Shown: positions 20,912 to 64,000 of the stretch, piece by piece
How positions within the stretch are numbered: the first letter of the stretch is position 1
Layout: each line of letters begins with the position of its first letter
Origin: Escherichia coli
GTDB lineage: Bacteria > Pseudomonadota > Gammaproteobacteria > Enterobacterales > Enterobacteriaceae
Direction: 5' to 3' (one strand)
Assembly: GCF_009931435.1 (NCBI RefSeq)
Contig: NZ_CP043414.1
DNA: 64,000 nucleotides
Position numbers and translations under genes: made by a program
The notes under the pieces: generated by a model
Told to the model about the DNA's origin: nothing
The model's input: the letters and a program-made list of their open reading frames with translations, nothing else
The model's database searches: none

Positions 20912-22039
<1,128 letters not shown>

Positions 22040-42078: not shown

Positions 42079-42123
42079 TGGCGCGCCCTGCAGGATTCGA
42101 ACCTGCGGCCCACGACTTAGAAG
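42079..42123 (-). pseudogene. pauD: 3' fragment of tRNA-Arg(UCU) argU (pauD-like), the prophage attachment-site core (attR)
   Basis: Reverse complement CTTCTAAGTCGTGGGCCGCAGGTTCGAATCCTGCAGGGCGCGCCA matches the 3' 45 nt of argU as I recall it (anticodon loop through the acceptor CCA); the 5' half of the tRNA is absent. Confidence 0.8.
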
Positions 42124-42546
42124 TTCCTAGAACGACATTTTAAGTCAACAACTTACCGCGCCATCTCTGCGCTCACACGTCCCACTACCTCAAAACATGT
42201 AAAGCCTTGCAAGCCATTGCGAGGCCTTATGTGTCTCAGTTTTGTCCCTCTTTTTTGTACTAAAAAACATAGTAATTGAGGATAAACCTCATGCTATTTT
42301 CGCTTATATGCCTCTAAAGGCATGGCACTTAAATAGATAAAAGCACCACAAAAGCATAAAAAAACCACACAGTAAAACCGAAATATGAAACAATAACAGA
42401 TAATTAAACCAAAAACAGATAGCGCATTGTGATAATCATTCAATACTAAACAAAATATAAACAGTGGAGCAATATGTAATTGACTCATTAAGTTAGATAT
42501 AAAAAATACATATTCAATCATTAAAACGATTGAATGGAGAACTTTT

Positions 42547-43500
42547 ATGCGGGCGAAACTTCTGGGAATAGTCCTGACAACCCCTATTGCGATCAGCTCT
42601 TTTGCTTCTACCGAGACTTTATCGTTTACTCCTGACAACATAAATGCGGACATTAGTCTTGGAACTCTGAGCGGAAAAACAAAAGAGCGTGTTTATCTAG
42701 CCGAAGAAGGAGGCCGAAAAGTCAGTCAACTCGACTGGAAATTCAATAACGCTGCAATTATTAAAGGTGCAATTAATTGGGATTTGATGCCCCAGATATC
42801 TATCGGGGCTGCTGGCTGGACAACTCTCGGCAGCCGAGGTGGCAATATGGTCGATCAGGACTGGATGGATTCCAGTAACCCCGGAACCTGGACGGATGAA
42901 AGTAGACACCCTGATACACAACTCAATTATGCCAACGAATTTGATCTGAATATCAAAGGCTGGCTCCTCAACGAACCCAATTACCGCCTGGGACTCATGG
43001 CCGGATATCAGGAAAGCCGTTATAGCTTTACAGCCAGAGGTGGTTCCTATATCTACAGTTCTGAGGAGGGATTCAGAGATGATATCGGCTCCTTCCCGAA
43101 TGGAGAAAGAGCAATCGGCTACAAACAACGTTTTAAAATGCCCTACATTGGCTTGACTGGAAGTTATCGTTATGAAGATTTTGAACTCGGTGGCACATTT
43201 AAATACAGCGGCTGGGTGGAATCATCTGATAACGATGAACACTATGACCCGGGAAAAAGAATCACTTATCGCAGTAAGGTCAAAGACCAAAATTACTATT
43301 CTGTTGCAGTCAATGCAGGTTATTACGTCACACCTAACGCAAAAGTTTATGTTGAAGGCGCATGGAATCGGGTTACGAATAAAAAAGGTAATACTTCACT
43401 TTATGATCACAATAATAACACTTCAGACTACAGCAAAAATGGAGCAGGTATAGAAAACTATAACTTCATCACTACTGCTGGTCTTAAGTACACATTTTAA
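42547..43500 (+). CDS. ompT: Outer membrane protease OmpT (omptin)
   Basis: 317-aa ORF MRAKLLGIVLTTPIAISSFASTETLSFTPDNINADISLG... ending ...ITTAGLKYTF. Confidence 0.93.
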   Translation: MRAKLLGIVLTTPIAISSFASTETLSFTPDNINADISLGTLSGKTKERVYLAEEGGRKVSQLDWKFNNAAIIKGAINWDLMPQISIGAAGWTTLGSRGGNMVDQDWMDSSNPGTWTDESRHPDTQLNYANEFDLNIKGWLLNEPNYRLGLMAGYQESRYSFTARGGSYIYSSEEGFRDDIGSFPNGERAIGYKQRFKMPYIGLTGSYRYEDFELGGTFKYSGWVESSDNDEHYDPGKRITYRSKVKDQNYYSVAVNAGYYVTPNAKVYVEGAWNRVTNKKGNTSLYDHNNNTSDYSKNGAGIENYNFITTAGLKYTF

Positions 43501-43749
43501 GAACGCCAACTAAAATTTCCCCGAGGTGAAAATCGCCCCGGGGAATAACTAGCCATTTCAATGTAACAATTAACCCTTAAAATAAACCCAGAAGGTTATT
43601 AACTAAATCACATAGAAAACCATCAATTATAGTATGTATAAAATAGGCGACAGCAACCCAATTACAAATTAATGGTTCCAGAATATCACATCAAAAAAAA
43701 CGCTGTATAATATTATAATTAACATGTAGACAACTTGTAATAAACATTA

Positions 43750-44499
43750 TCAGTCAATTGTTTTGTTTATTCCATCTGTGACGCCGATTATTTTCTCAAA
43801 ATAATGAGATGGCGTGACACCATAATAATCTTTAAATGCACATATGAAATATGAAGTACTGTTATAGCCACATTTCTGGGCTACGACATTGATAGAATAA
43901 GAGTTTGAAGTTATGAGTTTTTTTGCATACCTCATCCTAGTATCTCTCAATATTTCAGTAAATGACGTTCCTTCATCCCTTAATCTTTTTTTTATTAAAC
44001 TTTCACTCGTATAAATCAATTCCGCAATATCTTTTAAATGCCATTGCCGCTCAATATTAAAACTGATTATTCCAGTAATTTTACAGGTAAATGTATTTAT
44101 ATTTGTTAGTATAAATGAATTTACACTTTCGCGTTTTTTGAACATGGCAAGTAAGGATATACATAGTCTTTCTTTTAACCAAAGGGAGTGTGAGTCTGCT
44201 ATTTTAATCCCTTCAAACAGAGAAAAAACAAGCGATAATGGAGGTTCCTCTTCAGCAATATAGCCATTCTTATCAAGAGTAAATTTGCCAGGCAGCTCAT
44301 TATTCACGTCGATAAAAAAGGATAAACATGTTTTCTTATCTATATCAACAATTCTTAGTTTAGAGGGGCATACTGGTAACTCCCTTCTAATTTTGTCGCT
44401 TACAATAAACAATGAATTTTTTTTGAACGAGATAACTCTCCTGTTTATAATTAAATCAAATGATTGACAGATGAAAACTACGGAGCAAACATAATCCAT
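43750..44499 (-). CDS. appY: AraC-family transcriptional regulator AppY
   Basis: 249-aa [36 protein letters not shown]...; very AT-rich, with a long AT-rich upstream region (44500-45100). Confidence 0.88.
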
Positions 44500-45058
44500 C
44501 TTGCACCTATCATAAAATTAAAACAAGTTGATAGTAGTCAAATAACAACCAATTAAATACACAATCATAATCAGGATGATGTGCATTTATATTTTTATAC
44601 ACAAAATTATAGTTTGCAAATTTTAATAAATTTCATTTAAGATTAAATTATTATATGTATGTTGTTTTTTATTCTAACTTATTTCAAAGTTACATTTTTC
44701 AACGCTTACTATGCTTTTTATTAACATAAACTCACTACAACGCACCTGAAACCTCTTGCTATATATATGTCAACCGTTTGAATTTAAAATAAAAAGAGTA
44801 TCATTTTTACTTGCATTTCTTATCAAGTCACATTCAACAACAGTAAAAAAACATTATTAGAACCATTCAATTAACAAAAAACCAACATCCAGCTTGCTTA
44901 ATTTTTCTTTATTAAACGATATTGAAAATCAATTGATAAAATACATCTAAACAACCTTTTGGGGCGCAAAAGCATAACATCAAACAAACAAATAACACAC
45001 CGAAAAAACTCACAATTAATAACCTATGATATACATACTGTTTATTATGGTTGAATAA

Positions 45059-45200
45059 GCCACTCGATATCTGGTGCTACGGAAGTGTCCACACGGTTTA
45101 GCAGCACCCGATACTTTTTTCAGGCTTCCAGCAACGATCTTTCTTCCTCCGTTGCGATTTCCAGATCTACAGCATCCTGCAGTGGCGCAATATACTCACT
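45059..45200. repeat. Direct repeat copy A of the tfa 3'-end segment (partner at 46119-46260)
   Basis: About 140 bp at roughly 85-90 percent identity to 46119-46260, by manual alignment. Confidence 0.7.
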
Positions 45201-45305
45201 GAATTCCTGGATGTAGAACTGTGTAGTGACGGTCTTCCAGCCATTCGGCTCCTGCTGTATTGAAGCATACCAGGCTATTTCAATATCGCTATGCTGCGGC
45301 AGCAT
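45120..45305 (-). pseudogene. tfaX: Tail fibre assembly protein C-terminal remnant (tfaX-like)
   Basis: 61-aa ORF ending ...[23 protein letters not shown], homologous only to the C-terminal part of the intact Tfa at 46095-46679; lies in a duplicated roughly 140-bp segment. Confidence 0.7.
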
Positions 45306-45443
45306 TTAACCCCTTGTAATTCATTGCCATAATTGATTTAATTCACAAATAAAACTATAACATGGTGAAATTAATAAAAAAACACAGATGATGGGGCTAG
45401 AATTTACACACCACTTACCCTAAAGCTTTATGACTGGTGGGTT

Positions 45444-46040
45444 TTGGGAGTATCAAATCGGCTTGCATGGGGATGTCCTACAAAGGAACACCTTCTTCCA
45501 CACCTTCTTCCACACTTTCTGGAACATTTAGGTAACAACCATCTGGATATTGGTGTTGGAACTGGGTTTTACCTTACTCACGTACCTGAGAGTAGTCTGA
45601 TATCTTTAATGGATTTGAACGAAGCTAGCCTGAACGCGGCATCTACAAGGGCTGGGGAATCAAAAATTAAACATAAAATTAGCCATGATGTTTTTGAACC
45701 TTATCCCGCGGCGTTACATGGTCAATTTGATTCCATTTCCATGTCTTACCTTCTTCACTGCCTGCCTGGAAATATATCTACAAAAAGCTGTGTAATACGC
45801 AATGCGGCGCAGGCCTTAACTGACGATGGAACTCTATACGGAGCCACAATTCTTGGCGATGGAGTTGTGCACAATAGCTTCGGTCAAAAACTGATGCGCA
45901 TTTACAATCAGAAAGGCATCTTTTCAAACACAAAAGATTCCGAAGAAGGCTTAACACATATACTCTCAGAGCATTTCGAGAATGTTAAAACCAAGGTTCA
46001 AGGTACTGTAGTAATGTTTTCCGCTTCAGGAAAAAAATAG
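45444..46040 (+). CDS. ybcY: Putative class I SAM-dependent methyltransferase (YbcY-like), possibly N-terminally truncated or a pseudogene
   Basis: 198-aa ORF with glycine-rich motif I (LDIGVGTGFY); the only in-frame start is a TTG, with no upstream ATG or GTG before the stop at 45375. Confidence 0.55.
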   Translation: MGVSNRLAWGCPTKEHLLPHLLPHFLEHLGNNHLDIGVGTGFYLTHVPESSLISLMDLNEASLNAASTRAGESKIKHKISHDVFEPYPAALHGQFDSISMSYLLHCLPGNISTKSCVIRNAAQALTDDGTLYGATILGDGVVHNSFGQKLMRIYNQKGIFSNTKDSEEGLTHILSEHFENVKTKVQGTVVMFSASGKK

Positions 46041-46094
46041 CATCCAACCGCAGCATGTTCTTGCTTAAGACGTGCTGCGGCATAATCCCAATGA

Positions 46095-46679
46095 TTACTC
46101 CCTGACAGGGTTCGTAGGCCACTCAATATCAGGTGCAGTTGATGTATCAACACGGTTCAGCAACACCCGATATTTTTTCCAGGCTTCCAGCAATGAGGTT
46201 TCTTCCTCCGTTGCGATTTCCAGATCTACAGCATCCTGAAGTGGCGCAATATGCTCACTGGCTACCTGCATCAGGCTGTTTTTTGTTTCTTCCGCCTCCC
46301 GAATCCGGAACAGTTTTTCTGCTTCTGCATCTTTCACCCAGGCTGTACCGTTCCACTTCTGAAACTCCCCTTCCGGCGATAACCAGGTAACATTTTCCGG
46401 TAACGGACCGAGTTCAGAAATAAATAACGCGTCCCCTGACGCTACGTCATAAACCGTTTTACCCCGATGATCTTCAACGAGATGCCACGATGACTCATCA
46501 CTGTTGAAAACAGCCACGAAGCCAGCTGGAATATCTGGCGGTGCAATGTCGGTACTGTTTGCTGGCAGACCTGTATGAGGCGGAATATATGCGTCACCTT
46601 CACCAATAAATTCATTAGTTCCGGCCAGCAGATTATAAATTGTTATGGTCCGTGGTTGTTCACTCATTCTGAATGCCAT
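46095..46679 (-). CDS. tfa: Tail fibre assembly protein Tfa
   Basis: 194-aa [56 protein letters not shown]...; start overlaps the stf stop. Confidence 0.9.
46119..46260. repeat. Direct repeat copy B of the tfa 3'-end segment (inside the intact tfa)
   Basis: Partner of 45059-45200. Confidence 0.7.
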
Positions 46680-49600
46680 TATGCAAGCCTCACAATATAG
46701 TTAAATGCGATGTTTTTGACGGTGTTTTCCGCGTTACCAGCAGCGTTAACGGTGATGGTGTGTCCATGTGAGCCAATCGCAACCGAGTGCGTATGAGCAC
46801 CAATACCGACAGTATGTGCGTGTGCACCTGCGCTTGCTGCAGTGCCGGACAGTGAGTGGGTATGAGCACCATCTGATGATGTCTTCCCTGCATTACGAGT
46901 CTGGCCACTACCGCTTGTTGTGCTCATAATCCCCGCGCTTGGATTTGAAATCGCGGTATAACCATTAGGGAAAATGCTCGTGTTCGTGCCACCAAATGCA
47001 CCGGAACTCTTGTGTTGGTGCGCACCGGCACTATTTGCGGTCCCGCTAATACTATGGGTATGCGCCCCGGTGTTATTCGTGGATTTGGTTCCGTAATCAA
47101 ACGACGATGTGGTTTTCGTCCCCAAATCCGTACTGGATGCGCTGGCGCTGTGGGTATGCGATTTAATGCCGTCCTGTTCCTGAGACAATACGGCCCGACC
47201 ACTGGCAGGTTTGCCCTTAATCGTCCAGCCACGCATATCAGGGATCACGCCTGACGGATAAGCCGCTGCAAGTTTCGGGTAGGCAGATTTGTCAAAAGCC
47301 TGCCCCTGCATCAGGGCATAGCCAGACGGAACGGTATCTGATGGCCACGGGATTGGTGCGCCGACTGGGTAGCTTTCTGGTGGAAGATTTTTCGAGGTAT
47401 AAACTTCTGCCCAGTCTTCCTCAAAACCATAGCCATCTCTTGAGGAACGGTAGAACAGACCTCCATTTCTGTAATGCGCCTTCATCTGCAGGGTCCGGCA
47501 ACTTCCGACTCCGGTATAGAAGTTAACCAGAATATAGCTGTCGCCAGAGCGGGTGACATTGTAAGCGCCTGATTCGGCATTCCAGGGAACGCCACCATCC
47601 GCATCGGCATATGTATCCGTTGCCCTTCTGGCAAAAGCAGCCACATGCGCGGCGGTTAAAGTAATATCTTTGGAACCATCAAACTCAACACCAGAAACCA
47701 GTCTTGGCGTTTGCAGCTTTGTTGCTGTTAATGCATTACCGTTCAGACTTGCGGACAGTTTGGTTCCAATAATCAGTTCGCCGGTTGCGTTATCAATAGC
47801 AAACGGTCTTAATGTATTCCAGCCACCATAAACATCACCTTGATTGGTAAGCAGCAGGTAAGTTTTAGCGCCATCATTACGCCATAATGCACCATACTCC
47901 CCACCTATCATTCGAATCTGATTACCACCACGCGCTACAATTTCGTCTGTGGCAAAAAGTTTTTTGCACGACAAGTTATCGTTAACGATTAACGAATGAG
48001 ACTCATAAAAACCACGCCCACTCTTAAAATCAAGGATAACGTCCGCCGCGATACATTCAGTCGCCGGATTTGTTGCCCCAAACTTATAGGTCGTATCATT
48101 AACAACGAGATCAGCACCAGGTGCGGATATTGACAGGCCATCTTCGATAAACGCAAAAACAGGGAAAGCAGCGCCATCAACATAGAACACAGAGCGCAAA
48201 TCATCGCCCTTATTACTCATCATTATTGAGTGGATGGCTCGTTCATTGTTTTGATATTGCCAGAACATTCCATAAGCATAACGCCCCCTGTCAGTCCAGC
48301 CACCAGGCATAACAAATCCGTTAAACTCGCAGTTATTCATCGGATCGCCTGCGGTTCGCGTTGCCGTGGTGATAATGACCCTTGATGCCAGTTCGCTTAC
48401 TGAGCCAGCAGAACGCATAACAACAACAGGGTAATATTTTCCAGATGTTGCACCTGCAGGAGCGTTAACCCGCACATAACGCATACCACGCTTATCAGCA
48501 AAGTCTGTTTTACTGACCGCGTTAATGTTGTTCAGGAAGCGTCCCTTATCGGGTATATCAGCGCCGTTCTGGTCTTTCTGCAGACGTTTCTCTGCATTGT
48601 CATAGGCTGATTTTACTGCCTTTGGCGTTGCCGCCAGCGTTTCAGACGTACTGTTGGTCGCACTGCTGAGCTGTACTACCCCCTTTTTCGTCGTGCTCGC
48701 ATCCTCAAGCGCCACGGCGGATGCAATATCCTCTGCCCGTTTTGCCGCTGTCTCGGCGCGCGTTGCCGCGGATTCCGCCGTACTTTTGCTCTGAGCTGCC
48801 GCCGTCGCACTGCCAGCTGCCTCTGTCGCCTTCGTGGATGCCGTCGTGGCGCTGCTCTTCGCTGCTGACGCTTGTCTGGTCGCCTCATCTTTTGAAGCAG
48901 ACGCAGATGATGCCGATGACGCCGCCGAACTGGCTGACGATGCGGCAGCCGTTTTTGAGGATTCTGCGCTGGTTTCCGACGCTTTCGCGTTCGTTTCGGA
49001 TGTCTTCGCTGCGGAAGCAGAACTCGCTGCTGCGCTGGCCTGTTCAGTGGCTTCGCCAGCCTTCGTTGTGGCTGTTGAAGCAGACGATGCGGCACTTTCT
49101 GCCGACTTTCCGGCAGCGGTGGCACTGGCTGAGGCCTGCCCGGCACTTGTTGACGCGGCGCTGGCAGATGATGCAGCCGCTGTTTTTGAGTCTGCTGCTG
49201 CGGAGGCACTCTGTTCCGCTGCCGTCTCAGAAGACTTAGCGTTCGTCTCGGACGTTTTTGCCGCCTTCGCGGAATTTCCTGCCGCCGTTGCCGAGGAAGC
49301 TGCGCTACTGGCGCTCGAGGATGCGTTCGTTTCTGATGATTTCGCTGCCTCTTTTGAGGCCGCCGCATCCCTGGCTGAGGTGGCAGCTTCTGACGCTTTC
49401 CTGGTCGCGGTGGATGCAGAAGTGGCTGCTGATTGTTGTGACGCTGCGGCATTCGTTTCTGACGTTTTCGCCGCACCGGCACTGGTGGCCGCCGCGCTTT
49501 TTGAGGACTCTGCAGCGGCAGCACTTTTTTCCGCTTCAGTGGCCTTTGCTGATGCCGTTCCTGCGCTGGAAGATGCTGACTGAGCCGACGACGCGGCCTG

Positions 49601-50086
49601 TCCGGCTGACGTGCTGGCTGCGCGTGCTGAGCCTGCAGCATCAGTCGCATGGGTTGCCGCCTCACTGGCAGATGTGCTGGCATCGCCGGCTGACTTCTTC
49701 GCGGCTGCCGTGTTTTGTGCCACCGCGGACGCGTTACGCGCCACCTCTTCCACCATCAGTTCAAAACGGCGCAGAGCCTCCGGACGGGCATCATCCTCCG
49801 TCATGGCACCGAGAAAATCATTCAGCGTACCGGGTCGGGAATCTTCATACACGGTGATGGTCCCGGCATGTGACGGCGGGAATCCTTCCACCAACAGAAT
49901 AACGCTGTACTGACCGTACTCAACGTCCATGCTGTAACGCCCGGCTTCATCCGGATTTTCTGAGGCCAGCGTGTTCACCACCACCGCGGTGCTGTTACGT
50001 TTTGCTTTCAGCTGGATTGTGCAGTTCTGTACCGGTTTTCCTGTGCCGTCTTTCAGTACACCTGAAATCTTTACTGCCATATTCAC
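46679..50086 (-). CDS. stf: Side tail fibre protein Stf (lambda Stf / StfR-like)
   Basis: 1135-aa [40 protein letters not shown]...; long Ala/Ser/Thr-rich repetitive shaft; C-terminal His-rich GAHTHS-type motifs and ...[13 protein letters not shown]. Confidence 0.9.
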
Positions 50087-50096
50087 CCCACAAAAA

Positions 50097-50118: not shown

Positions 50119-50144
50119 GTCATAACACTGTGTTACCTGGCTAA

Positions 50145-50744
50145 TCAGAACTTATAACCGACACCCACGATGAAACCGTCAGTGCGCCAGTCGCCACTGC
50201 CGGAGCCTTCATAAGCAATATCAATGGCCACGGATTCGGTCGGGTTAAACTACACGCCAGCTCCCCACGCCAGAGACGTGTTGCTGTGGCGACCGTCATC
50301 ACTTCCGGTCAGCACGTCGTGCGTTTTCCCCTTGTTGTCAGTTACGCGGAGATAATCCCCGGAGAAAGTCGACACACGGCTGTAAGCCATACCCGCCATC
50401 GCATACGCGCTGAACCATTCATTCACGCGCACAGACGGCCCCACCATCACGCTGAACCAGCGGTTACGCACGGAATCTTCATGCCAGCGGGTATTGCTGT
50501 AACGGGTAAGCTGGCGATTCTTGTCTCCTGCATAGCTGAATGACGTCACCAGCCCCAGTGTGTCCGTAAACTCATAACGGTATTTCACGTTAATCCCGTT
50601 AAGATCATCGCTGCCGGGAACGTTCGTCGAGGCATGAAGATACCCCGCGCTCAGCGTGGACTGATGTTCAGATGCCCATGCAGGCGCACCGGATACGGTC
50701 AGACAAATGGCTGCGGACAAAATGGCGGCATAAAGTTTACGCAT
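50145..50744 (-). pseudogene. lom: Lom-like outer membrane protein gene interrupted by an in-frame amber codon
   Basis: 164-aa ORF MRKLYAAILSAAICLTVSGAPAWASEHQSTLSAGY... stops at TAG (50252-50250); the same frame continues FNPTESVAIDIAYEGSGSGDWRTDGFIVGVGYKF to a TGA at 50147-50145, with Q expected at the TAG position. Confidence 0.75.
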
Positions 50745-53800: not shown

Positions 53801-54227
53801 GCTGGATCTGAACCAGCAGGCGGACTTCCGACGGATTCCTGTCCCCCTTTGAGGTGGTTTCCACCAGTGCCTGCACGCCGAAGGTAAAACGCAGTCGGTC
53901 AATGTTTGCCGACGTGATGGTCCGGGTGATCGGCGTGTCGTATTTCACTTCCGTACCCAGCACCGTCTCGGAGCCGGAGGATTCAAATCCCTCCGGCGGT
54001 GTCTGCTCCTGCTCACCGGCCCGGAACACCACCGTGACGCCGGAGATATTGGTATTCCCCTCACTGTCCAGCACTGGCGTACTGTTCAGCAGCACGCTTT
54101 TTAATCCATCCACCGGACCTTCAACCGGCCCTTCGCTGATGGCATCGATCACACTCAGCAACTGCGTGGACTTCAGGTTGTCCTTCGCTTCGCGCGGAGT
54201 ATGCCCCTTACTGCTGCCTTTACCCAT
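50814..54227 (-). CDS. J: Tail tip / host specificity protein J
   Basis: 1137-aa [57 protein letters not shown]..., lambda J-like over most of its length with a diverged C-terminus. Confidence 0.93.
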
Positions 54228-54286: not shown

Positions 54287-54958
54287 TCAGCGACCAATCA
54301 CCACAACCTGACCACCATCCCCTTCGTCTGCCGTGCTGATCTCCTGAGAGACCACCCGCGACCCCACGCGCATTTCACCGTACAGAACCGGCAGAACATT
54401 GCCCTGGGCAACCATGTTATCCAGTGAGGAGAAATAGGTGTTCTGTTTGCCGTTATCCGTTGTCTGTGTACGGGGAGTTCTGGCTTTCGGTGCCAGCATC
54501 TGCGCCACACCACCGAGCACCATACTGGCACCGAGAGAAAACAGGATGCCGGTCATACCACCGGCCCCAATGGCTGCCCCCCATGCTGCAAGGGTGGCCC
54601 CGGCGGTAAAGAATGATCCGGCAATGGCGGCAGCCCCCAGGACAATCTGGAATACGCCACCTGACTTGGCCCCGGCGACTCTGGGAACAATATGAATCAC
54701 AGCGCCATCAGGTAGAGTCTCATGTAACTGCGCCGTTAATCCGGACGTGCTGACATCCTGCCCGGCAATCCGTACCTGATACCAGCCGTCGCTCAGTTTC
54801 TGACGAAACGCCGGGAGCTGTGTGGCCAGCGCCCGAATGGCTTCAGCCCCCGTTTTCACACGAAGGTCGATGCGGCGGCCAAATCGTTGCAAATCCCCGT
54901 AAAGGCAGATGCGCGCCATGCCCGGTGACGCCAGAGGGAGTGTGTGCGTCGCTGCCAT
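54287..54958 (-). CDS. I: Tail tip assembly protein I
   Basis: 223-aa ORF MAATHTLPLASPGMARICLYGDLQRFGRRIDLRV... (lambda gpI-like). Confidence 0.9.
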   Translation of the reverse strand: MAATHTLPLASPGMARICLYGDLQRFGRRIDLRVKTGAEAIRALATQLPAFRQKLSDGWYQVRIAGQDVSTSGLTAQLHETLPDGAVIHIVPRVAGAKSGGVFQIVLGAAAIAGSFFTAGATLAAWGAAIGAGGMTGILFSLGASMVLGGVAQMLAPKARTPRTQTTDNGKQNTYFSSLDNMVAQGNVLPVLYGEMRVGSRVVSQEISTADEGDGGQVVVIGR

Positions 54959-55599
54959 TTGTCGGTATACCTCTCTCGTTTGCTCAGTTGTTCAGGAATA
55001 TGGTGCAGCAGCTCGCCATCACCACAGTAAATGGCGGCATGATTCGGCACCGATGAACCAAAACAGCACAGCAGCACATCGCCCGGTTGTGCTGATGACA
55101 ACGGCACCTGATACAGCCCTGTGGCCTCCAGATTATCCAGATAGAGATTCTGACCGTGACGCCACCAGTCATCCTCGCGATGAAAATCCGGCATCTCAAT
55201 CCCCGCCAGATGATAAGCATCCCGGAATAGCGTGTAACAGTCCGTCACCCCGTGTTCAAAGCGCCGCCCGGTGAGATGCGGCACACAGCGGAACTTATGA
55301 ATCGTCCCCCGGCAGACCAGCCACCACGGCAAATCACTCTGCACCTGCAGCCGCCGGTCAGCCTCACTCAGCCAGGGCAGACCACCGGGGTGGCTGTGGA
55401 CCAGCGCCACAATCTCACCCTGCATCTCTGCCCGCAGCCAGTCCTCCGGCGACATCCGGAAATACTCCTCCGGCTCACCGGAGATATTCACGCAGGGAAA
55501 ATATCTTTCCCCTTCCGGCGTTCTCACCACGAAGCCGCACGACTCCGCTGGCGCACATCGCCGGGCGTGCGCCAGAATCGCTGATTCTGTCTCTGTCAT
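54856..55599 (-). CDS. K: Tail tip assembly protein K (JAMM/MPN plus NlpC/P60 domains); 3' boundary relative to lambda K uncertain
   Basis: 247-aa ORF MTETESAILAHARRCAPAESCGFVV... with HSHP motif; starts 5 nt after the L stop and overlaps I by 103 nt. Confidence 0.8.
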   Translation of the reverse strand: MTETESAILAHARRCAPAESCGFVVRTPEGERYFPCVNISGEPEEYFRMSPEDWLRAEMQGEIVALVHSHPGGLPWLSEADRRLQVQSDLPWWLVCRGTIHKFRCVPHLTGRRFEHGVTDCYTLFRDAYHLAGIEMPDFHREDDWWRHGQNLYLDNLEATGLYQVPLSSAQPGDVLLCCFGSSVPNHAAIYCGDGELLHHIPEQLSKRERYTDKWQRRTHSLWRHRAWRASAFTGICNDLAAASTFV

Positions 55600-55604
55600 G
55601 GGAT

Positions 55605-56303
55605 TTACTGCGAAAGTTTGTTAATGGAAAGGAAGCCGCCAAAGTTGCCGACATTATTGCGGAACTTACAGCCACTCAGGCATTTGCTGCATTTATCCTT
55701 CGTGATATCGGACGTCGGCTGATCATATTCATCCGCGACAGCCGGACCTTGATAACCGCACTCATCACCGCGATAGGTCCAGGTGCAGGTATTAGCCAGC
55801 ATGATGCGCCCCGGAAAAACGGCACCATCCGTTTCCGTCGGTGTGGACAACACAAAGGAGGCACTGACCGCACTCAGTTCGCTGCACTGCTCGATGCGCC
55901 AGCGGCTGATCACCTCCTGCTCCGGATCGGCGTCGCTGTTTCCGTTGACGAAGTTCACCGCATCCAGAAAACGGGCGTAAACCTTACGCCTGACCACCGT
56001 TCCGCCGACCAGACTCTGCAGGTCTTCCGCCATCCCCGTGACCATGCCGTGCAGGTTAGAAACCGTCAGTATCGGACGGGCAGCACTGCCCTTGCCGTTC
56101 AGTTCAAATCCCGTCCCCTGAATGGGGTATGCCTGATACTGCCGCCCCTGCCAGGTAACCGGCTCACCTTTTTCGTTTTGCTCATTACAGAAAAAATAAC
56201 GTTCTCCACCGACCTCTGTCAGGTCGATTTCCCAGAGCACCACGCTGGCCGACTGCTCCGCACGGGTGCATTCATTCAGTGTTTCCTGCCGGATATCCTG
56301 CAT
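55605..56303 (-). CDS. L: Tail tip assembly protein L
   Basis: 232-aa ORF MQDIRQETLNECTRAEQSASVVLWEIDLTEVGGERYFFCNEQ... Confidence 0.9.
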   Translation of the reverse strand: MQDIRQETLNECTRAEQSASVVLWEIDLTEVGGERYFFCNEQNEKGEPVTWQGRQYQAYPIQGTGFELNGKGSAARPILTVSNLHGMVTGMAEDLQSLVGGTVVRRKVYARFLDAVNFVNGNSDADPEQEVISRWRIEQCSELSAVSASFVLSTPTETDGAVFPGRIMLANTCTWTYRGDECGYQGPAVADEYDQPTSDITKDKCSKCLSGCKFRNNVGNFGGFLSINKLSQ

Positions 56304-56632
56304 CAGTTCACCACCTGTTCAAACTCTGCGCTGAACTCAACACGCAGCATACTGACCCGCGACGACCATTTTGCGCAGGTCACCTTTATCTGCCGCCACT
56401 CATAAGGCGGCGTCCACAGAAAGGATTTCCAGCCCCCGTGCTCTTCCAGAAACGACTCCAGTACCGTGGCCTCCTCACGGGGGACAGAAAGCGTCACGCT
56501 GTACGTTTTCAGGTTGGCATTCAGCCCGGCAGGCGCTCGCTGGGAATAGCCATCACCAAAGCGCACCTTTCTTACAGAAGGGACCGAAGCCACATCCATA
56601 CCGGGTTTCACTTTCCAGCGGAAGGTCTTCAT
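56303..56632 (-). CDS. M: Tail tip assembly protein M
   Basis: 109-aa ORF MKTFRWKVKPGMDVASVPSVRKVRFGDGYSQRAPAG... Confidence 0.9.
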   Translation of the reverse strand: MKTFRWKVKPGMDVASVPSVRKVRFGDGYSQRAPAGLNANLKTYSVTLSVPREEATVLESFLEEHGGWKSFLWTPPYEWRQIKVTCAKWSSRVSMLRVEFSAEFEQVVN

Positions 56633-59208
56633 CGTCCACCTCCGGAGAACAGGCCACCATCACGCATCTGTGTCTGAATTTCATCACGGGCACCCTTGCG
56701 GGCCATGTCATACACTGCTTTCATCATCTGTGGACCTGGCAGACCATTCGTACCGTCGTTCTGAATCACCACGTTGTTGTTCTGCTCAAACCTGATACCC
56801 TCTGAACGCCGCATTTGCGCCGGACTTCCGGTGCCACCGACATAACCGCCGGTGGCATAGCCGCGCATCAGCCGGTAGAGATTTCCCACGCCAATCCGGC
56901 TGGTTGCCTCCTTCGTGAAGACAAATTCACCACGGTGAACAATCCCCGCTGGCTCATATTTGCCGCCGGTTCCCGTAAATCCTCCGGTTGCAAAATGGAA
57001 TTTCGCCGCAGCGGCCTGAATGGCTGTGCCGCCTGACGCGGATGCGCCGCCACCAACAGCCCCGCCAATGGCGCTGCCGATACTCCCGACAATCCCCACC
57101 ATTGCCTGCTTAAGCAGAATTTCTGTCATCATGGACAGCACGGAGCGGGTGAAGCTGCGCCAGTTCTGCTCACTGCCGGTCAGCATCGCCGCCATATTCT
57201 GTGCAATACCATCAAAGGTCTGCGTGGCTGCACTTTTTACCTGCGACATACTGTCCGTGGCGCTCTCTTCCCACTCACTCCAGCCGGACTTCAGGCCTGC
57301 CATCCAGCTCCCGCGAAGCTGGTCTTCAGCCGCCCAGGTCTTTTTCTGCTCTGACATGACGTTATTCAGCGCCAGCGGATTATCGCCATACTGTTCCTTC
57401 AGGCGCTGTTCCGTGGCTTCCCGTTCTGCCTGCCGGTCAGTCAGCCCCCGGCTTTTCGCATCAATGGCGGCCCGTTTTGCCCGTTGCTGCTGTGCGAATT
57501 TATCCGCCTGCTGCGCCAGCGCGTTCAGGCGCTCCTGATACGTAACCTTGTCGCCAAGTGCAGCCAGCTGGCGTTTGTACTCCATCGTCTCATCTTTATG
57601 CGCCAGCAGGGATTTCTCCTGTGCGGACAGCTGGCGACGTTGTGCCGCCTCCTCCAGTACCGCGAACTGACTTTCTGCCTTCCACAAATCCCGGCGCTGC
57701 TGGCTGATTTTCTCATTTGCTCCGGCATGCTTCTCCAGCGTCCGGAGTTCAGCCTGAAGCGTCAGCAGGGCAGCATGAGCACTGTCTTCCTGACGATCGC
57801 CCGCAGACACCTTCACGCCGGACTGTTTCGGCTTTTTCAGCGTCGCTTCATAATCCTTTTTCGCCGCCGCCATCAGCGTGTTGTAATCCGCCTGCAGGAT
57901 TTTCCCGTCTTTCAGTGCCTTATTCAGTTCTTCCTGACGGGCGGTATATTTCTCCAGCGGCGTCTGCAGGCGTTCGTAAGCCTTCTGCGCCTCTTCGGTA
58001 TATTTCAGCCGTGATGCCTCAGACTCGACCCAGTCCTTTGCTGCCATCTCTCTGGCCTTTTCAAGATCGGCCTGCAACGTGGCGGCTGAAAGCCCAAGTT
58101 GCGCATTCGCTCTGTCCTCCCATGCTCCCCGGAGATTGGCAAGAAATGCTGAGGTTTTACCGCGCCGGTGGCTCCGGCTCTGATACCACTGCCATTTTTT
58201 GTCCGCCTCATCAAAAGCCTTTTCTGCTTTCTCCAGCATTCCCTGGGCAGTGTCCGGGCGACCAATATCCAGCACCGAATCCCACATGGATTTGAATGCC
58301 CGTGCTGTCCTGTCTGCCCAGGTCTCCAGCGTGCCCATGTTCTCTTTCAGGCGGCGGGTCTGGTCATCAAACCCTTTCGTTGCGGCCTCGTTCGCCGCCT
58401 GCAATGCCCCGGCTTCATCGCCGGAACGCTGCAACTGAGCAACATACGCAATCTGCTCCGCCGTCACGTTATGGAACTGGCGTGCCATCGCCGTCAGCCC
58501 CGACGTCGGGTCTGTGGTCAGCTTCCCGAAGGCTTCAGCGACCTTGTCCACCTCCACGCCGGATGCAGAGGAGAAACGCGCCACACTCTGGCTGATGGAC
58601 GCAATCTGAGCCTCACCGCTTACCCCCGCCTTAACCAGTGCGCTGAGTGACTCGCTGGTCTGGTTAAACGTCAGCCCTGCCGCCTGCCCGGCTCTGGACA
58701 GGACCAGCATGCGATCTGCCGTCAGACCCGACTGATTGCCGGAAAGGACCAGCGTTTTGTTGAAATCGGACAGGGTTGAGTTGCCCTGATACCAGGCATA
58801 CGCCAGCGCACCGGTCGCCACCGCCAGCGAGGTGGCCCCGACCATCGGCAGGGTGATCGCACCGGCAAGCCCCCTGAACATGGGGATCATCCCGCCGAAG
58901 GAGTCCTTAACCTGACCACCCTGTTGCAGCAGGATCAGCCACGGACTTTGCCCGCCTGCAAACTGCGTGGCCACGTCGGTGAACTGTGCAGGCAGCATAC
59001 GCATGGCGGCTTTATACTGCCCGACGGAAATCCCCGCTTTCTGTGCAGCCAGCGCCTGTCGGCTCAGCGACTGTTCAACGACTGCCGCTGTTTTTTTCGC
59101 ATCAGTTTCCGTACCGGAAAAATGACGCCTGACTCTGGCCATCTGCTCGTCAAATCTGGCCGCATCCAGACTTAAATCAACGACCAGATCGCCTACCGGT
59201 TCAGCCAT
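56629..59208 (-). CDS. H: Tail tape measure protein H
   Basis: 859-aa ORF MAEPVGDLVVDLSLDAARFDEQMARVRRHFSGTETDAKK... Confidence 0.93.
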   Translation of the reverse strand: MAEPVGDLVVDLSLDAARFDEQMARVRRHFSGTETDAKKTAAVVEQSLSRQALAAQKAGISVGQYKAAMRMLPAQFTDVATQFAGGQSPWLILLQQGGQVKDSFGGMIPMFRGLAGAITLPMVGATSLAVATGALAYAWYQGNSTLSDFNKTLVLSGNQSGLTADRMLVLSRAGQAAGLTFNQTSESLSALVKAGVSGEAQIASISQSVARFSSASGVEVDKVAEAFGKLTTDPTSGLTAMARQFHNVTAEQIAYVAQLQRSGDEAGALQAANEAATKGFDDQTRRLKENMGTLETWADRTARAFKSMWDSVLDIGRPDTAQGMLEKAEKAFDEADKKWQWYQSRSHRRGKTSAFLANLRGAWEDRANAQLGLSAATLQADLEKAREMAAKDWVESEASRLKYTEEAQKAYERLQTPLEKYTARQEELNKALKDGKILQADYNTLMAAAKKDYEATLKKPKQSGVKVSAGDRQEDSAHAALLTLQAELRTLEKHAGANEKISQQRRDLWKAESQFAVLEEAAQRRQLSAQEKSLLAHKDETMEYKRQLAALGDKVTYQERLNALAQQADKFAQQQRAKRAAIDAKSRGLTDRQAEREATEQRLKEQYGDNPLALNNVMSEQKKTWAAEDQLRGSWMAGLKSGWSEWEESATDSMSQVKSAATQTFDGIAQNMAAMLTGSEQNWRSFTRSVLSMMTEILLKQAMVGIVGSIGSAIGGAVGGGASASGGTAIQAAAAKFHFATGGFTGTGGKYEPAGIVHRGEFVFTKEATSRIGVGNLYRLMRGYATGGYVGGTGSPAQMRRSEGIRFEQNNNVVIQNDGTNGLPGPQMMKAVYDMARKGARDEIQTQMRDGGLFSGGGR

Positions 59209-59641
59209 ACCGGACTCCTCCTGCGATCCCTTCTGATACTGTCATCAGCATTACGTCATCCTCCGTCATGTCCGCCACATCCGGGGAAGCGGGGATAACT
59301 TCATTCCCGTCCGGGCCAAAGCGGACACCTCCGGCAAGCCCTGCCGCTTTCTGCATCAGCACATCATCTTCAGGCTCTTCGTCAGCCTCGCGCCGGTTAA
59401 GCAGACTGAAATCCAGCGGATGCATATCCGGATCGCTGAAAAACAGGCTGAGCACGGTGTACGTCAGCCCGGAAAAGTGCATATCCAGCAGAACATCATG
59501 AAAATAATGGGTACTGTAAAAGCGGTGCCAGTCGGCATACTCCGTGGATGACATCCCGGCAAGCATGGCACGCCAGTCGGGTCGCCCCATCTCACGCGCC
59601 AGTTTCAGGGCAAAACTCAGCTCACCGTCGAACACTTTCCC
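59201..59641 (-). CDS. T: Tail assembly chaperone T segment, expressed as a G-T fusion by -1 programmed ribosomal frameshift
   Basis: ORF in the -1 frame relative to G, beginning at the slippery site; no independent ribosome-binding site or ATG is expected. Confidence 0.8.
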   Translation of the reverse strand, partial: GKVFDGELSFALKLAREMGRPDWRAMLAGMSSTEYADWHRFYSTHYFHDVLLDMHFSGLTYTVLSLFFSDPDMHPLDFSLLNRREADEEPEDDVLMQKAAGLAGGVRFGPDGNEVIPASPDVADMTEDDVMLMTVSEGIAGGVRYG

Positions 59642-60039
59642 GCAGAAACAGGCTCTGCAGGCCCGGCGTCCTCTGTCTGTTCAGGGGTATTATTCACAAC
59701 AAACTCATACATTCCGGACAGCCGGTACACCACGTTTTCAGCATGAGAAATTGCCTCTGTGGGCCAGGTGGTAAGCACTTCCTGTTCAATCTGTTTAACG
59801 GCTTCATTCATGGACGGCATCTGCGTCTTCTTCGGATGGTTATGCCACAGGGACATCGCCACCACACAAGCACCGGTTCTGATGACGTCTTCCACAGTAA
59901 CCTGCCGGTTGCTGTCTGACTCCGCCTGTTCTGCCTGCCGTTTCATCAGGGCGAGATGCTCAATACGCTGCAGGGCTGACAGTTCAGAAAGCGTGACGGT
60001 CACGCCGTTATGTTCAAATGATTCGGTTTTCAGGAACAT
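59617..60039 (-). CDS. G: Tail assembly chaperone G
   Basis: 140-aa ORF MFLKTESFEHNGVTVTLSELSALQRIEHLALMKRQAEQ... ending ...SAGKCSTVS. Confidence 0.9.
   Translation of the reverse strand: MFLKTESFEHNGVTVTLSELSALQRIEHLALMKRQAEQAESDSNRQVTVEDVIRTGACVVAMSLWHNHPKKTQMPSMNEAVKQIEQEVLTTWPTEAISHAENVVYRLSGMYEFVVNNTPEQTEDAGPAEPVSAGKCSTVS
59635..59641 (-). other. Slippery heptamer G GGA AAG for the G/GT -1 frameshift
   Basis: Minus-strand reading GCG GGA AAG in the G frame, with the T frame reading GGG AAA GTG; identical in form to the canonical lambda G-T slip site. Confidence 0.8.
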
Positions 60040-60054
60040 CGCTGACTCTCCGGA

Positions 60055-60795
60055 TTAACTGGCGGTGACGGTGATTTCTGCAACCGCAGCAAACTCACCA
60101 TTACCGGATACGACCGGAATGTTGACCTTACCTGCAGCAACGCCATTCACGGTGATGGTCATACCACTGACCGACACGGTGGCTTTTGTTTTATCCGCTG
60201 ACACCGCACGGAAGCTCTTGTCGGTTGCGCCTTCCGGCTGGAATGCCACGGTCAGCGTGGTGCTCTGCCCTTTCACCACCGAGGTGCTGGCAGGCGTCAC
60301 AGTCATGCCGGTTGTCGCCGTCACCGTGCTGCGATCTTCTGCCATCGACGGACGGCCCACATTGGTGACCTTCACCGTGCGGGTGATCACTTCCTTCGCC
60401 GTCACCGCCTTACCGATACTGCTGACCCAGCCGCGGAACACATCGACCGTGCCGTTCGGGAAGCGGATTTTATAGGCTCGGGTATCCCCTTCATTAAACC
60501 ACGCCAGCAGCGCCTGCTGCCCCTGCTCTCCGGGCATCCACGCCAGCGTGAAGCTGGTATCTCCGGCAGATTTCTGCCCCTGTCCGGTCGCGGTCCAGTC
60601 CGCATCTTCATCATCGAGATAACTGTCGTCATAGGACTCAGCGGTCAGTTCGCCGGGCGTCAGGTCTTTAACTTTAGCCAGACGCGACCAGTCAACGTCT
60701 GAAAGCGGGTTCGCATAAGGGTCACCGTTCCCCTTATAAACCCACAGTGTGGTCCCGGCCCCTTTCACCGGTGCCAGAGGATTTGGTGTTGGCAT
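60055..60795 (-). CDS. V: Major tail tube protein V
   Basis: 246-aa product from the ATG at 60795 ([34 protein letters not shown]...); C-terminal Ig-like region. Confidence 0.92.
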
Positions 60796-60802
60796 ATCGT
60801 CC

Positions 60803-61198
60803 TCACATTTCATAGGTAATGACATAAGTCAGATCGGCTGAACTCCACAGGCCCGCATCATCGTCGCGCCGGTAGTCATAGCCACTGGCCACCATACTGG
60901 TGATCAAATCTGACAGTGCCGGGATATCGCTCATCACCGGATAAATCCGGGACTCCATCCACGAATCCAGCTCTGAATCCGGCACCTGAGCAGGCAGGAA
61001 AACTTCAATATGCAGCTCCGCCTGCCAGGTATCGCTGTCCAGCTCTTCGCCCGTGTATTCAGCGCCGGTGAGATAAACGGCAACTGCCGGAAAATCCGCC
61101 TCATCAAAAACAGCGGGGCGACCATCAAAAAACGTCGCCCCGGTGTCATGCTTCTCCAGTGCATCCAGTACGGCTGCACGGAGTTCAGTATGTTTCAT
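60803..61198 (-). CDS. U: Tail terminator protein U
   Basis: 131-aa [39 protein letters not shown]... Confidence 0.9.
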
Positions 61199-61773
61199 CG
61201 CTTTATTACCATCCTCAGTTGATGCTGCAGCGCATAGCCCAGCTCTTTCGGAAGACGCTCACGCCGTATCCGCTCAATATTCTGTTTAAACGCCGTGGTC
61301 AGCGGCACCGCCATCGGAATTTTCACCACATCAATGGGGTAACGATTTTTCCCGGCCACACGCTGCATAACATGCCAGCGGCCATTTTTCAGTTGCTGAA
61401 TAAACGCGCCGGGAATACGACGGTTTCCCACCACAAGCACGCTGCCGCCACCTTTCAGGGCTGAACGCTGCCCCTTTTTACGACGCCTGCGTCGGGACAG
61501 GACAATCCGCGCGTTACCCAGCTTTATTACGGGCAAATCCCCCCGGTTAACCTTGATTCTGGCCTGCGGATTTTTGACCGTGGCCCTTTTCAGCCTGGCC
61601 CTTTCCTTTACCAGTTTCCGGCGTACCTTTGTCTCACGGGCAACCTGTGACGCCGACTGCGATATCGCGGATGAAGCAACGCGGTTAATGGCCATTGCGG
61701 CGGCACCGGGCACCGCCGTTCTGCTGATACGGCTGAGGTTTTCAACGGCCTGCTCAAGACCTTTTATGGCCAT
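61195..61773 (-). CDS. Z: Tail completion protein Z
   Basis: 192-aa ORF MAIKGLEQAVENLSRISRTAVPGAAAMAINRVASS... Confidence 0.9.
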   Translation of the reverse strand: MAIKGLEQAVENLSRISRTAVPGAAAMAINRVASSAISQSASQVARETKVRRKLVKERARLKRATVKNPQARIKVNRGDLPVIKLGNARIVLSRRRRRKKGQRSALKGGGSVLVVGNRRIPGAFIQQLKNGRWHVMQRVAGKNRYPIDVVKIPMAVPLTTAFKQNIERIRRERLPKELGYALQHQLRMVIKR

Positions 61774-61784
61774 ACATCCCCCTT

Positions 61785-62138
61785 TCAGCGGCGACGGTTA
61801 ACGGCAGGCGGTACGCCCCGCCCAAGCCAGAGATGACAGCTTCCGCCATCATCCGGCGAAATCCGGTCTATCCAGAAGTTTTCCTCACCGATGGTCAGCG
61901 TGTCGCCGCGCCGCAGCTGCCGCACATCATCAGTCCGGACAAACAGGAACGGGCTGGAGCCTTCAACGCGCACGCCCTGTCCGGCATAGCTGATATTTTC
62001 AGGATCATCAAAAACACCACGTATCACAGCACCGGACTGCTCACCGGATGTCATGGTGGCTGACGTTCCCATGTACCCGCGTATCGTTTCATCGGCGCGG
62101 GCAATGGCAGCATCGAACAGGTTATCGAAATCAGCCAC
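61785..62138 (-). CDS. FII: Head-tail joining protein FII
   Basis: 117-aa ORF MADFDNLFDAAIARADETIRGYMGTSATMTSGEQ... Confidence 0.9.
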   Translation of the reverse strand: MADFDNLFDAAIARADETIRGYMGTSATMTSGEQSGAVIRGVFDDPENISYAGQGVRVEGSSPFLFVRTDDVRQLRRGDTLTIGEENFWIDRISPDDGGSCHLWLGRGVPPAVNRRR

Positions 62139-62149
62139 AGCGCCTCCCG

Positions 62150-62545
62150 TTATTGCATTCTGGCCAGGCCGCGCTCTGTCATTTCAGCTGCCACACCGGC
62201 AGAGACACGGAACGCCGTTCCCGGCAGCACAAATGCCACAGCCTCATCCCGCGTGGCGTGAAGTGCATCAGTATGCAGCGTCACCAGTGCCACAACCGTG
62301 ACCAGATCAGCCGTATCAGTCACGGTATCCGGCTGCGCTGATACAACCTCATTTTCATGTCCGGTCAGCGCATTTTCCGGGCTGACAGATGTGTCCTGAC
62401 CAGCAGCGTCATCCGTGTCATCAAGCTCCTCTTCCAGCTCTGCCACACGGAGTGCCAGTTCTTCTTTCGTCCCCGTCAGGCTGACATCACGGTTCAGTTG
62501 CTCACCCAGCACCTGAAGACGGGCAATCAGTTCATCTTTCGTCAT
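62150..62545 (-). CDS. FI: DNA packaging / head assembly protein FI
   Basis: Start taken at the internal ATG at 62545 (MTKDELIARLQVLGEQLNRDVSLTGTKEELALRVAEL...), giving 131 aa; the longer ORF start at 62584 was rejected. Confidence 0.85.
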   Translation of the reverse strand: MTKDELIARLQVLGEQLNRDVSLTGTKEELALRVAELEEELDDTDDAAGQDTSVSPENALTGHENEVVSAQPDTVTDTADLVTVVALVTLHTDALHATRDEAVAFVLPGTAFRVSAGVAAEMTERGLARMQ

Positions 62546-62586
62546 GGACTCCTCCACAGAGAGAAAATGGCCCCGAAGGGCCATGA

Positions 62587-63612
62587 TTACGCCAGTTGTA
62601 CGGACACGAACGCATCAGGATCAGCCAGCAGCATCAGCGGTGCTGACTGAATCATGGTGAACTCACGCGCCGGATCGCCGGTGGTCACCCAGTTTTTCGG
62701 GTAGCGGGCAGAGGCGTTAATACCTTCGCGCTGTGCGTCCGCATCCTGAATGCAGCCATAGGTGCGCAGACCGCGTGCCTGAGTGTTCCCCAGCACCATC
62801 GTGTTGTCCGGCAGGAAGTTCTTTTTGACGTCGTTTTCCACGTACTGTCCGGAATACACGACGATCGCCGTATCGCCATACATCCCCTTATAGGACACCG
62901 CTTCGCCCAGATCTTTTACCGCTGTCTCCAGCTCGGAATGAGAGCCGCGACGGGTATCCAGCTTCTCCTTGACGGCTTTGAAGGAACGGAACAGCGCCCA
63001 GCCTTTCGGATCAAACACGATGATATTCACCACACCGCTGGCGTTCAGCGCGTAGGCTTCGATATCGTCGGTCGGGTCATACGTGGACTTGTCACGCTTG
63101 CTCCACTCCGTACCGCCGGACTGCGTGATGTTGTTCGCCACACTGCGGCCCATATCCACTTCAACCGGATCGAAGGCTTCACCGGTCATGGTATATTTGC
63201 CCTTAAGCACGGCAGAAACGGCCTGCATCTCTTCGACCTGAGCAATGGCCAGCTCTTCGTCTCGCATGTTCTGCAGAATGATGCGACGGCGGCGGTAAGC
63301 CGGGTCCGCCAGATTCTGTGGATCTTCATCCGGCAGGCGACGCAGGGTCATCTGCGGATTCACCTCATGCTTCGGCTTGACATATCCCGGTGTAAATTCA
63401 GAGGTGGAGCCGCCACGGGAGCGGATAACCTCACCGGAAACAATCGGCGAAACGTACAGCGCCATGTTTACCAGTCCCGGAATTTGTGAGAGATAGACTT
63501 TCTCCGTGGTGAAGGGATAGCTCTCACGGAAAAAGAGACGCAGAAACAGCGGATCAAACTTAAATTTCTTCTCATTTGCCGCCAGCAGCTGGGCGGTTGT
63601 GTACATCGACAT
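62587..63612 (-). CDS. E: Major capsid protein E
   Basis: 341-aa product from the ATG at 63612 (MSMYTTAQLLAANEKKFKFDPLFLRLFFRESYPFTTEKVYL...). Confidence 0.93.
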   Translation of the reverse strand: MSMYTTAQLLAANEKKFKFDPLFLRLFFRESYPFTTEKVYLSQIPGLVNMALYVSPIVSGEVIRSRGGSTSEFTPGYVKPKHEVNPQMTLRRLPDEDPQNLADPAYRRRRIILQNMRDEELAIAQVEEMQAVSAVLKGKYTMTGEAFDPVEVDMGRSVANNITQSGGTEWSKRDKSTYDPTDDIEAYALNASGVVNIIVFDPKGWALFRSFKAVKEKLDTRRGSHSELETAVKDLGEAVSYKGMYGDTAIVVYSGQYVENDVKKNFLPDNTMVLGNTQARGLRTYGCIQDADAQREGINASARYPKNWVTTGDPAREFTMIQSAPLMLLADPDAFVSVQLA

Positions 63613-63667
63613 AAAAAAATCCCGTAAAAAAAGCCGCACAGGCGGCCTTTAGTGATGAAGGGTAAGG

Positions 63668-64000
63668 TTAAACGATGCTGATTGCCGTTCCGGCAAACGC
63701 GGTCCGTTTTTTCGTCTCGTCGCTGGCAGCCTCCGGCCAGAGCACATCCTCATAACGGAACGTGCCGGACTTGTAGAACGTCAGCGTGGTGCTGGTCTGG
63801 TCAGCAGCAACCGCCAGAATGCCAACGGCAGCACCGTCGGTGGTGCCATCCCACACAACCAGCTTACGGGTGGAGGTGTCCAGCATCAGCGGGGTCATTG
63901 CAGGCGCTTTCGCACTCAATCCGCCGGGCGCGGTTGCCGTATGTGCCGGGTCACTGTTGCCCAGCGGCTGGTAATGGGTAAAGGTTTCTTTGCTCGTCAT
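63668..64000 (-). CDS. D: Head decoration protein D
   Basis: 110-aa [55 protein letters not shown]...; the ATG is the last three bases of the window. Confidence 0.92.

Follow-up and report, generated by a model that had tools for sequence, protein, structure and literature searches.

The analysed window is a stretch of 64,000 nucleotides (nt) from the chromosome of Escherichia coli (RefSeq assembly GCF_009931435.1, contig NZ_CP043414.1). The part considered here, positions 42079-64000, very probably is the arm next to the attachment site (att) of a prophage of a lambda-like (Lambdavirus-type) siphovirus, inserted in the 3' end of the tRNA gene argU and preserved in what would be the pre-deletion state of DLP12, the prophage remnant of E. 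coli K-12. This assignment is drawn from sequence comparison, and nothing contradicts the identification as the arm of a DLP12-type lambdoid prophage.

The genes were identified by searching the window with lambda proteins (tblastn), and their lengths and stop codons were assessed by a codon-level comparison with lambda. Sixteen lambda genes were found on the minus strand and in the lambda order, namely D, E, FI, FII, Z, U, V, G/T, H, M, L, K, I, J, stf and tfa. From D to J, and again in tfa, the lambda proteins are covered from the first to the last residue at 88-100% protein identity. These genes contain no internal stops, and their lengths are those of lambda, except for H (6 amino acids (aa) longer), J (5 aa longer) and FI (1 aa shorter). 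The ratio of nonsynonymous to synonymous substitution rates (dN/dS) versus lambda is 0.24 over the sixteen genes. In addition, curated NCBIfam models exceed their cut-offs for G, T, H, L, J and FII, and for the cargo protease OmpT described below. No NCBIfam model matches D, E, FI, Z, U, V, M, I, Stf or Tfa, and the identification of these ten is therefore by direct identity to the lambda proteins. Chance or mis-annotated reading frames were also considered as an explanation and are ruled out by the sixteen consecutive full-length lambda matches in order, together with hidden Markov models scoring above their cut-offs. The features of this module, in the lambda order, are as follows.

63668-64000, minus strand: D, head decoration protein, 110 aa; 97% identical to lambda D over residues 1-110
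62587-63612, minus strand: E, major capsid protein, 341 aa; 97% to lambda E
62150-62545, minus strand: FI, DNA-packaging chaperone; 88% to lambda FI
61785-62138, minus strand: FII, head-tail joining protein; 96% to lambda, with an NF049848 match in the FII/FI region
61195-61773, minus strand: Z; 98% to lambda Z
60803-61198, minus strand: U, tail terminator; 99% to lambda U
60055-60795, minus strand: V, major tail protein; 97.6% to lambda V, full length
59617-60039, minus strand: G, tail assembly chaperone; 95% to lambda G
59201-59635, minus strand: T, tail assembly chaperone; 100% to lambda T
56629-59208, minus strand: H, tape measure protein, 859 aa; TIGR01541 at 424 bits, 91% to lambda H
56303-56632, minus strand: M, minor tail protein; 100% to lambda M
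55605-56303, minus strand: L, minor tail protein; TIGR01600 at 329 bits, 96% to lambda L
54856-55599, minus strand: K, tail tip assembly protein (JAB/NlpC-P60), an open reading frame (ORF) of 247 aa; 97.5% to lambda K
54287-54958, minus strand: I, tail tip assembly protein; 99% to lambda I, full length
50814-54227, minus strand: J, tail tip and host-specificity protein, 1137 aa; lambda_TipJ at 2290.7 bits against a cut-off of 1950, 89% to lambda
46679-50086, minus strand: stf, side tail fibre; an uninterrupted ORF of 1135 aa
46095-46679, minus strand: tfa, tail-fibre assembly protein, 194 aa, intact; 94% to lambda Tfa, full length

An earlier note on this DNA, made without database searches (the sequence-only reading), had listed the D to tfa genes as uninterrupted, and the full-length, stop-free matches bear this out. 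The same note had spoken of a complete head module, which goes further than the window does. The start codon of D is formed by the final three bases of the window, the only head genes visible are D, E, FI and FII, and the five remaining ones (Nu1, A, W, B and C/Nu3) lie outside. Because the window ends at the D start codon, a complete head module is not readable there.

Compared with lambda (NC_001416, D to tfa at 5747-22557), the window has the same sixteen genes with the same order and overlaps, and several fine details are also shared. The FII gene has a GTG start whose context is identical to that of lambda. Near the end of G, positions 59635-59641 hold a slippery heptamer, GGGAAAG, whose relative position is that of the site at 10109 in lambda; T is read in the -1 frame relative to G. 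This heptamer is predicted to permit a G-T fusion by -1 frameshifting; the profile scores in the G/T region are 212 bits (TIGR01674) and 189 bits (TIGR01715). For K, the 199-aa form annotated in lambda would begin at 55455, and in relatives the Prokaryotic Genome Annotation Pipeline has placed 744-nt C40 peptidase genes at the K position. The 859-aa H protein has no exact record in the public protein collection.

Differences from lambda are seen in the fibres, in the tail tip and in the att arm. Stf and Tfa are located downstream of J, as in lambda, but at about 1133 aa Stf far exceeds the length of its lambda counterpart, to which it is only partly related. Its likely start is at 50080, where homology to lambda Stf begins; identity to lambda Stf is 88% over the N-terminal 285 aa, and toward the C-terminus the protein is 69% identical to lambda orf-314. 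The whole protein is about 94% identical to the Stf of phage Kati (PP925833) and to that of the argU prophage of FACU 2024. Over the last approximately 230 aa of J (50814-51500), identity to lambda J falls to 30-36%, whereas the J protein of phage PhiR49_1 (PV340568/9) matches this part at 100% and the whole of J at 98.5%; the record of that phage gives ECOR13 as the host. Since the C-terminus of J has diverged, the receptor need not be LamB, and the receptor specificity may differ from the LamB binding of lambda. The gene between J and stf encodes a Lom-like protein that is 44% identical to lambda Lom and truncated. Furthermore, the att arm bears ompT and appY where lambda has b-region genes. 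Lambda itself inserts at attB between gal and bio, and the argU-type integration module and site are different.

The site of insertion is recognisable from a direct repeat of the argU 3' end, located at the boundary between the prophage and the following chromosomal genes.

37205-40198: nfrA, chromosomal flank
40199-41089: ybcH, chromosomal flank
41272-42033: envY, chromosomal gene directly before the att core
42079-42123, minus strand: att core, the prophage/chromosome junction; an exact 45-bp copy of the argU 3' end

The att core spans the anticodon loop to the CCA of argU, is located between envY and ompT, and has the same sequence as the right-end repeat of K-12 DLP12, for which the K-12 annotation gives an end at 586056, likewise between ompT and envY. 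A 47-bp argU-like attR has been described for DLP12 (PMC6379469). The same core is found in the phages Kati and PhiR49_1. Its outer edge, 42079, is the start coordinate of the stretch under study, and the match of the window to the Kati genome begins at 42077. A scan of the whole window with ARAGORN returned no tRNA; argU lies outside the window and the att copy is just a 45-bp fragment of it, so that the insertion site is named from the att copy and from synteny. The window is oriented in reverse relative to K-12 but is collinear with it. Toward the prophage, the chromosomal order is the ent/fep cluster (1-21 kb), the cus genes, nfrB, nfrA, ybcH and envY, with the same synteny as in K-12. The placement at an argU, DLP12-type site by the sequence-only reading is in agreement with these results.

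The relation to K-12 DLP12 is visible at the level of a single joint. The annotation of DLP12 in K-12 MG1655 (NC_000913.3, 564755-586056) keeps nohD, aaaD (a terminase-A pseudogene), tfaD, a ybcY pseudogene, tfaX, appY and ompT, and contains no head or tail genes. This agrees with the earlier note, which gave tfaD, ybcY, tfaX, appY and ompT as retained in K-12 and the head and tail genes as missing. From nfrB to tfaD, the K-12 sequence aligns with positions 36180-46533 of the window as a single high-scoring segment pair of 10.35 kb at 98.55% identity, and the right arm (ompT, appY, tfaX, ybcY and tfaD) is collinear. This segment stops at 46533, inside tfa, exactly at the tfaD/aaaD joint of K-12. 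Because the alignment ends at this joint, K-12 is read as a deletion derivative of the arrangement in the window: judged from the alignment, K-12 has lost everything from within terminase A to about codon 50 of tfa, and the window represents the undeleted state.

Both copies occupy the same site with the same flanks and the same 45-bp att repeat, share a frameshift in ybcY, and are without an invertase segment. Unlike K-12 DLP12, the window retains the 5' end of tfa, stf, the lom-like gene, J to Z, FII, FI, E and D, and its ybcY carries a 12-nt duplication. The combination of shared derived markers (the ybcY frameshift and the loss of the invertase segment) with the genes that K-12 has lost suggests that the copy in the window lies on the path to the K-12 remnant. 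The description of the element as a less decayed relative of DLP12, made by the sequence-only reading, therefore holds. That reading had also suggested aligning the prophage to lambda and to K-12; for the arm in the window, this gave the lambda order and a K-12 block reaching up to the break in tfa.

The cargo and accessory genes include the region between the att core and tfa, and one gene within the tail region.

42547-43500, plus strand: ompT, omptin outer-membrane protease, cargo (moron); NCBIfam NF008222 at 706.6 bits, above the cut-off
43750-44499, minus strand: appY, AraC-family regulator, cargo; an ORF of 249 aa with AraC-family matches
45048-45227, minus strand: tfaX-like fragment, remnant of a tail-fibre assembly gene; tblastn match to residues 132-191 of lambda Tfa at 73%
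45362-46040, plus strand: ybcY, S-adenosylmethionine-dependent methyltransferase pseudogene; the frame changes after codon 7
50145-50744, minus strand: lom-like Ail/Lom outer-membrane gene between J and stf; Ail/OmpX-family matches

The position of ompT is identical in K-12 DLP12 and in the genomes of Kati and PhiR49_1. The appY gene is collinear with appY of K-12 at 98.6% identity and has been handled as a DLP12 prophage gene (PMC10057817), and the tfaX-like fragment corresponds to tfaX of K-12. The GC content of the ompT-appY-tfaX-ybcY arm (42000-46000) is 0.35-0.39, compared with 0.50-0.60 in the neighbouring chromosome and in the tail genes, which is typical of foreign cargo.

The frameshift in ybcY is a loss of 2 nt in a AATGAAAAAAAAC tract that is common to the window and K-12, while the tract is intact in Kati and in the argU prophage of CD45. 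This shared loss is a possible lineage marker, although slippage in a homopolymer could recur independently. The 12-nt duplication, by which LLPH is repeated, is present in the window and not in K-12. Between ybcY and tfa, Kati and CD45 carry a segment of 1.76 kb that comprises ynaM, ydfK and the gene of a Pin-like DNA invertase. Neither the window nor K-12 nor FACU 2024 has this segment (window 46080-46117 versus Kati 9928-11686). The lom-like gene, which was not part of the gene list in the earlier note, is interrupted at codon 165 of 199 by an in-frame TAG (50250-50252; Q165* relative to the 199-aa Lom of Kati). A protein short of about its last 35 residues is probably inactive, and the truncated 164-aa Lom-like protein has no exact record in the public protein collection.

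Elements of this kind are widespread. Among 5,426 complete RefSeq E. coli genomes, 407 (about 7%) contain 80% or more of 42079-64000 at a single location, and at least 80% of the D-to-H part is found somewhere in 3,124 genomes. In a locus-specific survey, DLP12 was the commonest of the five K-12 cryptic prophages that the survey covered, being present in 74% of 638 strains (PMC6379469). A 60-mer from the window (63881-63940) has no exact match in 100,044 GTDB species-representative genomes. The phages Kati, PhiR49_1 and 2G7b (NC_049954) all carry ompT together with lambda-like morphogenesis genes. Kati (46,065 bp, host E. coli) aligns with 98% of the stretch at an identity of 97.1%, and its integrase adjoins the att core. 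PhiR49_1 (45,270 bp) has the att core, ompT and the morphogenesis module, and 2G7b matches 74% of the stretch, with an omptin annotated under the match. Unlike the window, Kati has the invertase segment and intact ybcY and lom genes, and in PhiR49_1 another gene replaces appY and the fibre genes differ. A literature search on Kati, PhiR29 and ev099 returned no describing paper in the collection that was searched, only mEp332 appearing, in a quantitative PCR paper; the viability of those phages consequently rests on the name, host and source fields of their records. Judged by these comparisons, full-length DLP12-type prophages are common, members have already been deposited as phage genomes, and the kind of element is already known. 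As a separate observation, the Kati record contains a 'tRNA-Pro' (PP925833, 5936-6019) that includes the 45-bp copy of the 3' end of argU, a tRNA-Arg (att core at 5936-5980). Since the att core lies inside this call, it looks like a mis-annotated attP.

The argU prophage of E. coli strain CD45 (L002) gives a view of a whole element of this type, approximately 47 kb from argU-intD to ompT. Its order is argU, intD, exo/bet/gam, cI/cro-type regulators, O/P, nin, quuD, a porin, essD/rrrD/rzpD and iss/bor, and later Nu1 to tfa, the invertase, ybcY, appY, ompT and att. Both CD45 and FACU 2024 (L017) share the site and the gene order of the att arm with the window, and FACU 2024 likewise has no invertase segment. 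They differ from it in being 95-98% identical in a mosaic pattern and in having lesions of their own that the window lacks; the window in turn has its own, in the lom-like gene and in ybcY.

On the basis of this arrangement and of lambda, a course of expression can be proposed. The structural genes would form the distal part of one late transcript, from Nu1 to tfa, that would start upstream of the window at pR' and be under antitermination by Q (QuuD-type) upon induction. D and E would build and stabilise the capsid, and FI and FII would complete and join the filled heads. The tail would be built by Z, U, V, G and G-T (the latter produced by the -1 frameshift at GGGAAAG), H, M, L, K, I and J, after which the side fibres would be added by Stf and Tfa. 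The genes ompT, appY and the lom-like gene would be morons expressed in the lysogen, in the arm next to att.

A further proposal is that the prophage in the window is a still-active ompT/appY lambdoid phage of the same lineage as K-12 DLP12, that is, a living 'pre-deletion' DLP12. Membership of the DLP12 lineage would follow because the ybcY frameshift and the loss of the invertase segment are shared with K-12. As a whole this proposal is rather doubtful, and several points weigh against it. The window ends at the start of D, and Nu1, A, W, B, C/Nu3, the lysis genes, Q, the replication and immunity genes, int/xis and argU are all beyond it. The closest complete RefSeq E. coli matches to the prophage arm are about 98% identical and no closer record was found, so that the part beyond 64000 has no nearly identical prophage to represent it. 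Moreover, relatives with equally good arms are damaged elsewhere, by lesions that are frequent and independent. In CD45, J is frameshifted; in FACU 2024, there is a frameshift in K and an internal stop in the portal gene; and in two further places (L020 and L025) an IS66 element is located inside gene C. Finally, two accessory genes in the window itself are broken, by the nonsense codon in the lom-like gene and the frameshift in ybcY, neither of which is structural. The inactivation of both suggests some time of residence without selection on them.

The lesions in the relatives and in the accessory genes of the window argue for a defective, grounded prophage, in which the visible late arm would be intact and an inactivating deletion, insertion sequence (IS) or point lesion would be located outside the window, in the head, terminase, regulatory or integration genes. 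The contribution of such an element would be limited to gene donation through recombination or to the complementation of other lambdoid phages, and the rescue of genes from defective prophages by temperate phages through recombination has been described (PMC6379469, PMC3945230). Most of the inspected relatives that share this arm have suffered a deletion or carry one or more disrupted essential genes, and the decay of the two accessory genes fits this explanation as well. On the other hand, all sixteen visible structural genes are intact, with the dN/dS of 0.24 given above, and errors of assembly may account for some of the frameshifts and other lesions in the relatives. Both damaged genes of the window are also dispensable, ybcY being cargo and lom not being needed for the lytic growth of lambda.

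The state of the unseen half bears on the same question and was approached through the genomes that share the head genes. The exact E protein occurs in 4,665 blocks of the public collection and the exact FI protein in 21,962; being too common to mark a lineage, they were used only to sample what lies upstream of D. Gene calls from Nu1 to C were present upstream in 17 of the 20 sampled places, with fragmentation into several ORFs in one (L011), which speaks against a grounded prophage. The upstream head genes are accordingly likely to be present in the prophage of the window. Taken together, a grounded prophage is slightly favoured, and the viability of the whole prophage is possible but somewhat short of an even chance.

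One of the sampled places illustrates a more drastic loss. In CP014092.2 (L022, 7578-19100), the region from int' through C has been lost: argU is followed by 0.3 kb of int and, about 0.6 kb later, by D, which is about 0.9 kb from argU. The order continues with E, FI, FII' (IS), Z to H' (IS) and then ybcY and tfa', with an H'/ybcY joint. No closer match to the window was found than its D-FII segment, at 99.0% identity, and the end of the window at the ATG of D may hide a deletion of this kind. However, this state, with D near argU, was seen in only 1 of the 20 sampled places.

The same segment also enters a different explanation, according to which an old DLP12-type remnant (att, ompT, appY, ybcY' and tfa) regained a morphogenesis module by homologous recombination with another lambdoid phage, either newly infecting or already resident in the cell. 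Identity to K-12 and Kati is 98.6-99.1% in the 4.4 kb next to att, whereas the head and tail part is a patchwork, 95-98% identical to any single relative, with breaks in stf, in the C-terminus of J and in H. The D-FII segment is closest to CP014092.2, and other segments are closest to other genomes. That lambdoid phages become mosaic by recombining with prophages is well documented (PMC3945230, PMC9836094). Mosaicism, however, is normal in this group of phages and does not distinguish regain from retention. In addition, tfa is continuous over the break point of K-12, with no novel joint seen, and Kati and PhiR49_1 share the overall layout, so that no special event is needed. A recombinant origin of this sort is thus considered improbable, and retention of the module in an undeleted DLP12-type prophage is the preferred reading.

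Two observations concern the chromosome beside the prophage. Over positions 1-42000, the best identity among the complete RefSeq E. coli genomes is about 98.4%, and over 20000-42100 several other full-length matches among those listed are only about 96.7% identical to the window; the lineage of the strain seems to be poorly represented in this set of genomes. Within 1-21000, short repeated matches at approximately 35 places per genome point to repeats like the repetitive extragenic palindromic elements.

The significance of these results beyond annotation is small, and nothing in them is surprising. An argU prophage without the terminase-to-tfa deletion of K-12 places ompT and appY on an element that may still be mobile, and its arm may supply head and tail genes to other lambdoid phages via recombination or complementation. 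The ybcY frameshift shared with K-12 can serve, in a modest way, as a marker for placing the decay steps of DLP12 in order. If the prophage is indeed still active, the steps of decay that led to the K-12 remnant would be reconstructable, and ompT and appY could move between strains of E. coli.

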